Positions 1,736 to 3,466 of a DNA stretch of 64,000 nucleotides are shown in pieces. Positions within the stretch are counted from its first letter, which is position 1, and the number at the start of each line of letters is the position of its first letter. The DNA is taken from assembly GCA_963664705.1 (NCBI GenBank), contig OY761556.1:6240001-6304000 (forward strand). The letters run 5' to 3'. This stretch comes from Acidobacteriota bacterium (GTDB lineage Bacteria > Acidobacteriota > UBA6911). The notes beneath the pieces are model-generated. The model was given only the letters and a program-made list of their open reading frames with translations, did no database searches and was not told the DNA's origin. The translations under genes and the position numbers were made by a program.

Positions 1736-3466
1736 TTACCGCCACTTATCAATCTGGATGGACTGCCCCACCATCAAACCGCCGGCCATCCAATAGTTGT
1801 TGTTGGATGCACCGGTGACGATGACGTTGAAGTTGCCGCCTCCCCTGGGGCCGCCGGGGGGGCCGCCAGCTCTGCCCCCGCGACCGGCTGCGGCAGCGGG
1901 TGGAGCGGCTGGGGCACCCGCGGGCGGAGTCGCAGGCTGGGTGACCCATGCGGTCAGTTTTTCGATTGAATCGTAGCCGGCATCTTTAACGAAATTGGCG
2001 ATCGGGGGGCTCAGGATAATGAAAGTCCCGAACAATCCCGGATTTTGCTGGTCGTAGATGTCTTTGATGATCTGGGGATAGTTCATGTCCGGTCCCCAAC
2101 GGTTGACTTTCCAGTTTGCCGCGGAAAGAACACCCCAGCCGTTGAGCAGCGTGACGATATTCTCACCCTCTTTGAAGCCGCGTCTGACGGCCAAAGGCTT
2201 GAATGGAGAATCCCGTTCATTTTCCGCAATGATCGTCGCAAGTGCATTCTGGGCGTTGCCTACGGTACCCATGTAAGTCGTCCCGACTTTTCCACAATTG
2301 CCGCCGTTGATGGACAGCAGGTTCCAGGCTCTTCCGATCGCAACATTGGCCTCCGCATAGGGGCCAACGGCGCCAATCTCATAGTTGAGTTTGATTTCGT
2401 CGCGAATGGGGCCATTGATGACGGCTCCACCCGCGAAGCCGTTGTCGGAAACATTTATGGATGTGATGCCGCTTGAACCCAGCGCCAGGATCACCGGGAA
2501 GTATTCCGGTTTGGCGTCGGCCATAACTGCGTTGATCGCGGCGGTCTTGACCGTATAGGTCCAGACTTCGCCGGCTTCGGACCCGGGATTCATTTTGCCG
2601 AGTACTTCGTCGGGTCGATGGCTGGTGCCTTTCAGCATCTCAGCGACCTTTTCTTCAGTCGGCAGGATCACCGGCATATAATCGGTGAATCGTTTTTCCT
2701 TGAACAGTTTCTGAAGCTCATCCGGAGTTCCGGTAAAGGTCGCCGGACCTGTAACCGGCTTTATTTCCCCGGTTTTCTTTTCTTCGGCAGTCAAAGGCTT
2801 GGTGAGTTTTTCCACCAGTTCCGGCATGACCGGTTTGCCGGTAATCGGATTCAGGCCTTCAACAATCTGCTTCTTGAGCTGTTCGTTCGTCTTTGCCCAA
2901 ACCGGGCCACGGAAGTACTGGATGCGGAGGCCGGGCATGCCGTCGTTTAACGCTACCTCAGCTTCCTGCTTGGCGAAATCGTGAATGATGAGAGGGATTG
3001 CGGGTTTCTTTAACGTAGATTCGACATTAATTGAGAGGCGGACCGCCCCTGGCGCACAGACACTTCAATGCCCCAGTCCAATGATGGCGGCGTCTCCTTT
3101 TTTTTCAATCTCTGCCCAGAGTTCTTTGTCAACGCCGACCATTCCGCCGGAACTTCTCTTAATCACCACATTGGTTTTGGGATAGTTGGCTTTGAACCAA
3201 TCCGTCATCACATCCATGAGGCGATCGGTTCCGATGTAGCCGGTGTTCACAAAATAAATAGTTTTGCCGTCCAGCGTAGCAAGCCGTTCTGCCATTGGCT
3301 TTACTGTTATGGGCGGCGGTGTGCCCATCGGGCTGAGCACCGTAATCTTAGGCATAGCCGCCGGCTTCGCTGCCACGGCTGCCTTTTTCGCTTGTGCATA
3401 AACGCCTGTCATGCCGAAGCAAAGGCCTATGCACACGATTGCAACCACTGCTATACGCAATTTCAT
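1736..3466 (-). CDS. Exported UGSC-family (UxxC) selenoprotein, 576 aa, with Sec at UGA 3067-3065
   Basis: ORF 3065-3466 ends GLGH-TGA. The next 42 codons are open (SVCAPGAVRLSINVESTLKKPAIPLIIHDFAKQEAEVALNDG) and in frame with the ATG at 2938. N-terminal signal peptide; the downstream part has 'FTDYMPVILPTEEKV...AINAVMA', typical of the UGSC-associated domain. Confidence 0.85.
3034..3064 (-). promoter_or_regulatory. Putative bacterial SECIS element
   Basis: mRNA after the UGA reads AGUGUCUGUGCGCC-AGGGGCG-GUC-CGCCUCU: a 7-bp stem with a G-first apical loop starting 22 nt after the UGA. Confidence 0.7.

Follow-up and report, generated by a model that had tools for sequence, protein, structure and literature searches.

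The window analysed here, a stretch of 64,000 nucleotides, carries on its minus strand a single continuous frame (1736..3466) of 576 codons followed by TAA, with one in-frame TGA. The plus strand of the same interval contains several stops, and the coding strand is the minus strand, on which all features of the gene lie. The frame starts with an ATG at 3466, which is preceded at a distance of 8 nt by a GGGAGG run (3475..3480), read from the sequence as the ribosome-binding site. It ends with the TAA at 1738-1736, and an intrinsic-terminator-like hairpin of 14 pairs with a T run (1684..1717, sequence fold) follows directly after the stop. Residues 1-24 (3395..3466) form a probable, cleavable signal peptide according to a hydropathy heuristic, with cleavage presumed to occur after VYA. 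Residues 43-200 (2867..3340) make up a UGSC domain, which is recognised by Pfam PF24696 and was characterised by structural modelling, fold searches, and a profile match. Residues ~240-576 (1739..2749) form a second domain, Unknown_1, which is modelled with confidence and has neither a Pfam family nor a detected solved relative. It includes a Pro/Ala/Gly-rich insert (residues ~515-541, 1844..1924) that, according to the alignment and the model, varies among paralogues and has low model confidence. The TGA is codon 134 (3065..3067) in the context GLGH-TGA-SVC and would encode Sec134 of a U-S-V-C motif, the Cys137 of which lies at 3058-3056. Downstream of it we found a hairpin with a 7-bp stem and a GUC loop 22 nt after the UGA (3034..3050), which folding and comparative analysis point to as a bacterial SECIS element. 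The 42 codons from the UGA to the next ATG (2939..3064) lie inside the folded UGSC domain, where they contribute a helix, a strand, and a helix in the model, and in the alignment they carry the invariant residues E149 and P155.

Standard ORF calling divides this frame into a 133-aa and a 400-aa ORF, the latter beginning with the ATG at 2938, and inspection of the sequence upstream of this second ATG revealed no GGGAGG-like run. That annotation would split the gene in two had been anticipated in the original prediction; indeed, the entry for this genome in the public protein collection is the 400-aa half, as it is for relatives, and such halves account for 119 of the best 120 matches. The neighbouring genes in the window are a double SnoaL-domain protein gene (1-1598, plus strand), which converges on the terminator it shares with the selenoprotein gene, and TatD and ThiF-family genes (3676-5265, plus strand), which are divergent from it. 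At 5921-8128 (plus strand) lies an ORF that we take to be catalase-peroxidase-like. We saw no link between these neighbours (SnoaL, TatD, ThiF, and catalase-peroxidase-like) and the selenoprotein. The window also contains a 1273-aa ORF (12293-16114, minus strand) that opens with a signal-like segment; its N-terminal part has two repeats, which presumably resemble DM9 repeats.

The UGSC domain matches PF24696 with 65.3 bits against a cut-off of 25, while the score for the NCBIfam equivalog NF041046 (35.6 bits) falls short of its cut-off of 125. By these sequence scores the protein is a divergent, fused UGSC subfamily and not an NF041046 equivalog. No Pfam family scored above its cut-off in the C-terminal part. 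Comparison by eye showed, however, that this domain bears the AVNxVMAGxxPEYxPxL stretch, which the text of Fig. S1A of PMC2398784 gives for Unknown_1; in this figure Zhang and Gladyshev published the UGSC/Unknown_1 fusion in 2008. The homologue alignment shows D, N, R, and E residues of Unknown_1 that are invariant. Outside the genus, UGSC and Unknown_1 are usually separate neighbouring genes, as indicated by a phylum search in which four candidates were scored per genome and which was used for gene order and not for copy number. Thirteen such split loci came from other Acidobacteriota; in 11 of them an AhpC-TSA/Redoxin domain is part of the Unknown_1 partner, which lies beside a separate, UGA-split UGSC gene. 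The gene break at split loci falls between the domains, and the UGSC gene still has its internal UGA. Five further proteins of 709-741 aa (P0165, P0182, P0205, P0207, and P0211) are matched twice by the Unknown_1 part and have no UGSC or other Pfam domain above cut-off.

The genome (6.9 Mb, a single contig, 98% complete, 6% contamination) encodes the selenocysteine machinery in duplicate, with two selA, two selB, two tRNA-Sec (selC), and two selD genes identified in a genome search. Whereas selA was found in 28 of 30 genomes of the genus, two full selA genes are present in just five of the 30, and we therefore rejected the idea that the doubled machinery is a genus trait. One selA-selB-selC-selD set is clustered at C1:3066000-3084000 and the other is scattered over the genome. 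The clustered set adjoins genes for a corrinoid protein, a URO-D-like methyltransferase, RACo, and an ArsM-like (seleno)protein, and the region may be an acquired island. Its SelD (L002:3422-4093) is a Cys form with a Cys-rich N-terminal extension; the other SelD gene (C1:2046792) has an in-frame TGA.

Protein sequence is conserved on both sides of the in-frame UGA in the homologue alignment. From a panel of 150 representatives obtained by profile search, 74 UGA-free homologues reach well upstream of the Sec site. CxxC occupies the site in 22 of these (for example GHCSTC in P0125) and is missing in the remaining 52. In the close homologues examined (44, of which 40 were picked from the top matches), all carry a TGA in the context GH-U-S-x-C. 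The frame is continuous without TGA in four paralogues from the same genome and in many homologues. Among the UGA-bearing paralogues, the next in-frame ATG follows 16-133 codons after the TGA, and there is thus no common restart site. A short-read contig that may stem from the source sample itself covers the UGA without differences.

The hairpin AGGGGCG/GUC/CGCCUCU is present in the minimum-energy fold, as had been predicted. The bacterial SECIS model described in PMC13188914 asks for a loop of 3-9 nt with a G at its position 1 or 2, a stem of 4-16 bp, a distance of 16-37 nt from the UGA, and an energy of at most -7.5 kcal/mol; with a 3-nt GUC loop, 7 bp, a distance of +22, and -8.9 kcal/mol, the hairpin agrees with this description. 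Dinucleotide shuffles gave no signal (z of -0.17 to +0.41 for three longer windows and -0.49 for a 36-nt window), and synonymous resampling of this gene was borderline (p ~0.05). Silent-site conservation in the 44 close homologues spoke more clearly. Of 212 four-fold sites, the two that rank 1 and 2 are the third positions of codons +6 and +9 in the hairpin, both without any variation, and codon +10 comes sixth, while codons +4, +5, and +11, which flank the stem, vary freely (ranks 188-199). Stem cells were paired in 90% of cases in these homologues, with five double changes at one pair, and the covariation score alone was no higher than that of one slid control. A perfect stem with a G in the loop was found in 23 of the 31 UGA-containing paralogues of the genome, and a simple hairpin is missing in eight. 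The summed hairpin energy of the paralogues was -177 compared to -82 +/- 14 after synonymous resampling; none of 300 resamplings was as low, a count that is no true probability because the paralogues are related. Five paralogues with the motif GD-U-GSCTK (L037, L038, L039, L040, and L059) have near-identical nucleotides after the UGA and no simple canonical hairpin; they are candidates for a non-canonical SECIS.

Taken together, the locus is one gene, and its UGA is very likely read through as selenocysteine. It is highly improbable that the UGA is a true stop, be it between two genes or by nonsense mutation or sequencing error: the hairpin on its own is no stronger than shuffles and the two domains are separate genes outside the genus, but a stop here would cut the UGSC domain mid-way, relatives as well as 31 paralogues have UGA at this codon, neither a common restart nor a ribosome-binding site before 2938 was found, and the UGSC genes of split loci keep an internal UGA of their own. 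The original prediction of a probably exported 576-aa selenoprotein of the UGSC family, with GLGH-UGA-SVC and 42 open codons leading into the 400-aa ORF at these coordinates, was supported by the minus-strand frame, PF24696, the homologues, and the hydropathy heuristic. The three features it had named as telling, namely selA, selB, selC, and selD in the genome, Cys or UGA at the aligned position in homologues, and a conserved 42-codon linker, were all found.

The genome contains 35 paralogues of the family, 31 of which have exactly one TGA, located at the U of UxxC, while four are continuous without a stop and have L, S, N, or M at the Sec position. The 31 UGA paralogues carry eleven motifs (USVC, USLC, USQC, USSC, USTC, UDGC, UDSC, UGSC, UWGC, UPGC, and UHGC), so that USVC does not stand out as the special variant it had been thought to be. 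With a median identity of 32% and only 3 of 595 pairs at or above 90%, the paralogues are, to judge from their divergence, old and diverse. In a FastTree phylogeny they form several well-supported clades that are interleaved with homologues from elsewhere. L020 and L021 (C1:6758042 and 3995117), which are 99% identical and lie 2.8 Mb apart, represent a recent duplication.

All 29 other genomes of the genus gave 9-29 matches each when up to 26 candidates were scored per genome, and deeper scoring of 18 genomes gave 9-44 matches per genome. Other genera of the family had 0-2 matches (1-2 in 4 of 21 genomes), a count obtained with a single-protein query, with which distant split forms can be missed. 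Three genomes searched with the Pfam UGSC model had 58, 45, and 28 matches; in G349 (8% contamination), the one with 58, a TGA was present in 41. The closest named records are Acidobacteriota MAGs, including UBA6911. We rejected contamination as the source of the expansion in view of the single contig, the low identity among paralogues, and the recurrence of the pattern in all 29 genomes.

Overall, the selenoprotein genes of the genome number 41 or more; 31 of them, or three quarters, belong to this family and 10 to known families. The latter were accepted from 19 other TGA candidates scanned, with the remaining 9 not accepted; three of the ten do not reach the cut-off of their family, and for ArsM the matching models are all longer fusions. 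The total is a lower bound, since two of the 31 known cases escaped the genome-wide TGA scan, which recovered the other 29. An Na+/H+ antiporter frame (L163:217-1488; C1:6396412, minus strand) has a TGA at codon 326 through which the Pfam match runs, representing either a nonsense mutation or an unexpected recoding site. For comparison, the ten bacteria richest in selenoproteins in BSepDB have 46-63 such genes each according to Table 2 of PMC13326102, and none of these ten belongs to the Acidobacteriota; the string 'Acidobacter' is absent from the main text of that paper. In the Olavius metagenome as reported in PMC1976440, UGSC is represented by one gene and other selenoprotein families by 2-12 genes. 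The string 'selen' is likewise absent from the main text of the genome paper on family UBA6911 (bioRxiv 10.1101/2021.04.09.439258). Our literature search found nothing on this expansion or on a link between UGSC and PrdB; BSepDB entries and Deng et al. 2026 may contain these genes.

The paralogues had no shared partner in their neighbourhoods. This comparison took in ~1.5 kb on each side of 30 loci, as well as four regions of greater length; of 123 candidate frames 93 were included, together with the window neighbours. Outer-membrane receptor genes lie beside several paralogues (five neighbours, some counted twice via overlapping loci).

At the N-terminus of the protein, a basic start is followed by a hydrophobic stretch and by V-Y-A, and the highest 19-residue hydropathy mean after residue 30 is 1.37. 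By the same heuristic, a hydrophobic N-terminal stretch is present in 27 of the 31 Sec paralogues compared to 10 of 62 full-length UGA-free homologues from elsewhere. The protein is probably exported, which would place it in the periplasm. Four paralogues (L061, L017, L027, and L060) have one twin-arginine-like SRRSFLK start and three lipobox-like stretches between them, as we take these motifs to be, which suggests several export routes in one family.

The original prediction had combined the signal peptide with a thioredoxin-like region. The signal-like N-terminus was supported by the hydropathy heuristic, but the thioredoxin-like region had no family or profile match. An AlphaFold2 model of residues 38-576, in which Sec was read as Cys, reached a pLDDT of 87 and a pTM of 0.86. 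In this model, the N-terminal domain consists of alternating strands and helices, with the Sec position located where a helix begins after strand three. The best structural matches of the whole model were flavodoxin-, receiver-, and Rossmann-like (Z up to 11.1, rmsd 4.6, 138 aligned), and no thioredoxin was among the matches listed. At the top, with Z 11.1 each, stood a designed protein and 8s7v_H, a subunit of the complex that activates methyl-coenzyme M reductase. At the sequence level, 30 members gave no match to thioredoxin families at E up to 0.1, and searches of the PDB with protein and profile queries returned nothing below E 0.1.

A relationship emerged when a profile of 102 N-domains was compared by hhalign with one built from 30 Acidobacteriota Sec modules of the GrdB/PrdB type. 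The two aligned with 95% probability (E 2e-8) over 95 columns with Sec on Sec, and still with 90% when the two Cys columns were masked, whereas the controls reached 0.2% (thioredoxin, 4 sequences), 0.6% (receiver domains, 17 sequences), and 0.1% (reversed). The Sec domain is thus predicted to be flavodoxin-like and related to the GrdB/PrdB Sec module rather than to thioredoxin. PF07355 (GRDB) matched none of 30 members and had no match in the genome. It was matched in 77 of 301 Acidobacteriota genomes, mostly partially with matches ending at the UGA, and short PrdB-like genes cut at the UGA in LVPV-U-PxC (L070-L097) are widespread. A GrdA search gave a match in no control genome. Folded alone, the C-terminal domain had a pLDDT of 89.7. 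Foldseek found no match for it with an E of 0.001 or less (some weak rows of class I fumarase had an rmsd of ~17), and the best VIA-align hits (Z 5.3 over 72-81 residues, capsid-like subdomains) were taken as noise; the missing solved relative does not prove that the modelled fold is new. Comparison of the C-domain with the GrdE-type pyruvoyl-forming subunit gave 0.3% with a shallow template of two sequences.

These data led us to a model in which the product is an exported two-domain reductase that works like protein B of proline or glycine reductase; we rate the chance that the mechanism holds as a whole at slightly below even. SelB would read the hairpin and insert Sec134, and the protein would be exported to the periplasm. 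There, the selenolate would attack a small substrate bound by Unknown_1, giving a selenium-linked intermediate that Cys137 might resolve to an Se-S bond. This bond would be re-reduced by a thioredoxin-type relay. Here DsbD may feed the relay in the periplasm; in other bacteria, this role may fall to the thioredoxin domain that is fused to the Unknown_1 partner. The diverged copies, 31 in number, would differ in the substrates they act on. In PMC3091704, the chemistry proposed for PrdB is of this type: the selenolate attacks the substrate once bound, the selenoether is resolved by a Cys, and the Se-S bond is re-reduced by a thiol or selenol partner. We inferred a periplasmic PrdB-like selenol reductase with a relay from this chemistry, the GrdB/PrdB profile match, the thioredoxin-fused split partners, and DsbD. 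The genome has one three-domain DsbD, for which no periplasmic partner was identified in the genome, and the thioredoxin-like domain of the split-locus partners is absent from this protein. Against the PrdB-like reading we counted the 52 of 74 full-length UGA-free homologues without CxxC and the four UGA-free paralogues, in which the scaffold has survived without such chemistry, the missing second Cys of GrdB, the lack of a PF07355 match, the lack of a match between Unknown_1 and the two GrdE-type sequences, the replacement of the Unknown_1 Cys by Ala, the lack of a fixed neighbourhood partner, and the eight paralogues without a simple hairpin.

Other functions were weighed against this evidence. 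As the original prediction implied, the protein could be a general periplasmic thiol-type oxidoreductase, that is, a disulfide, peroxide, or sulfoxide reductase whose C-domain only recognises protein or small-molecule substrates. The UxxC at a helix start in the model, the heuristic export signal, the DsbD in the genome, and the grouping of UGSC with Trx-like proteins in the family descriptions of PMC2398784 and PMC13188914 would fit. We nevertheless consider it unlikely, given the absence of thioredoxin family matches, the contrast between the thioredoxin and GrdB/PrdB profile comparisons, and the 31 copies at so low an identity, which are hard to square with one housekeeping job.

We regard it as rather improbable that the catalytic centre resides in Unknown_1 and performs non-redox chemistry, with the Sec motif as an accessory or regulatory switch. 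In its favour are the 52 UGA-free homologues without CxxC and the five proteins of ~710-740 aa that match the C-terminal part twice without a UGSC domain. However, Sec is kept in 31 of 35 paralogues under strong silent-site constraint on the SECIS, and the partner found outside the genus is linked with thioredoxin as well as with a Sec-containing UGSC gene. Improbable, too, is a role of Sec and Cys not as a reductive nucleophile but as ligands or carriers of a metal, metalloid, Fe-S cluster, or sulfane sulfur in exported binding or transfer proteins: the match to 8s7v_H, the outer-membrane receptor genes adjoining several paralogues, and the invariant D, N, R, and E of Unknown_1 are consistent with it, but just one or two Cys/Sec residues are conserved, the structural match reflects a common fold, and the specific profile match is to reductases.

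The PrdB-like reading has a broader and more tentative extension. In this genus of uncultured Acidobacteriota near UBA6911, most of the selenoproteome may consist of 10-40 exported, single-chain PrdB-like selenoenzymes with a substrate domain of unsolved fold. They would carry out Sec-dependent reductive cleavage in the periplasm, missed by annotation, and these genomes would be among the richest users of selenium. UGSC has had no function since 2007 and is left unexplained in the family descriptions of PMC13188914 and PMC9312934; PMC2398784 lists it among the most abundant aquatic selenoprotein families. The locus presents the family in single-chain form, and natural Cys homologues could be expressed without Sec machinery. 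It also offers a specific chemical hypothesis, PrdB-like rather than thioredoxin-like, and a partner domain for which no solved relative was detected. With 41 or more selenoprotein genes, the copy number here is unusual when set against the totals of the ten richest BSepDB bacteria (PMC13326102, Table 2), and standard annotation cuts every copy in two.

The UGSC family and its fusion to Unknown_1 are already known; what appears new is an exported, strongly expanded variant in a single genus with a Sec domain related to GrdB/PrdB and not to thioredoxin. As in the published UGSC/Unknown_1 proteins (PMC2398784, PF24696, NF041046), the UxxC lies at the same place, and all 35 paralogues score above the PF24696 cut-off. 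In contrast to these, we found a probable signal peptide and 31 Sec copies in one genome. The 2008 paper assumed a Trx-like fold where a flavodoxin-like one is predicted here, and the Cys noted there as conserved in Unknown_1 is Ala in this protein. With thioredoxin-fold UxxC selenoproteins (Trx-like, Prx-like, and DsbA-like), the protein shares the UxxC at a helix start and a probable Se-S redox cycle; it differs in lacking a family or profile match to them and in the modelled position of the motif after the third strand of a domain with flavodoxin-like best matches. Another likeness is to selenoprotein B of glycine, sarcosine, and betaine reductase (GrdB/F/H) and to PrdB of D-proline reductase (PF07355): their Sec module is homologous, the Sec residues align, and the Sec is followed in turn by a C, by ExxGxP, and by a motif of the PxP type. 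Unlike GrdB, which has UxxCxxC, the protein reads U-S-V-C-A-P-G and lacks the second resolving Cys, and it has neither a PF07355 match nor a detected pyruvoyl proprotein partner. Finally, whereas GrdB and PrdB are cytoplasmic, the Sec module described here is fused to an unrelated domain and is predicted to be exported.
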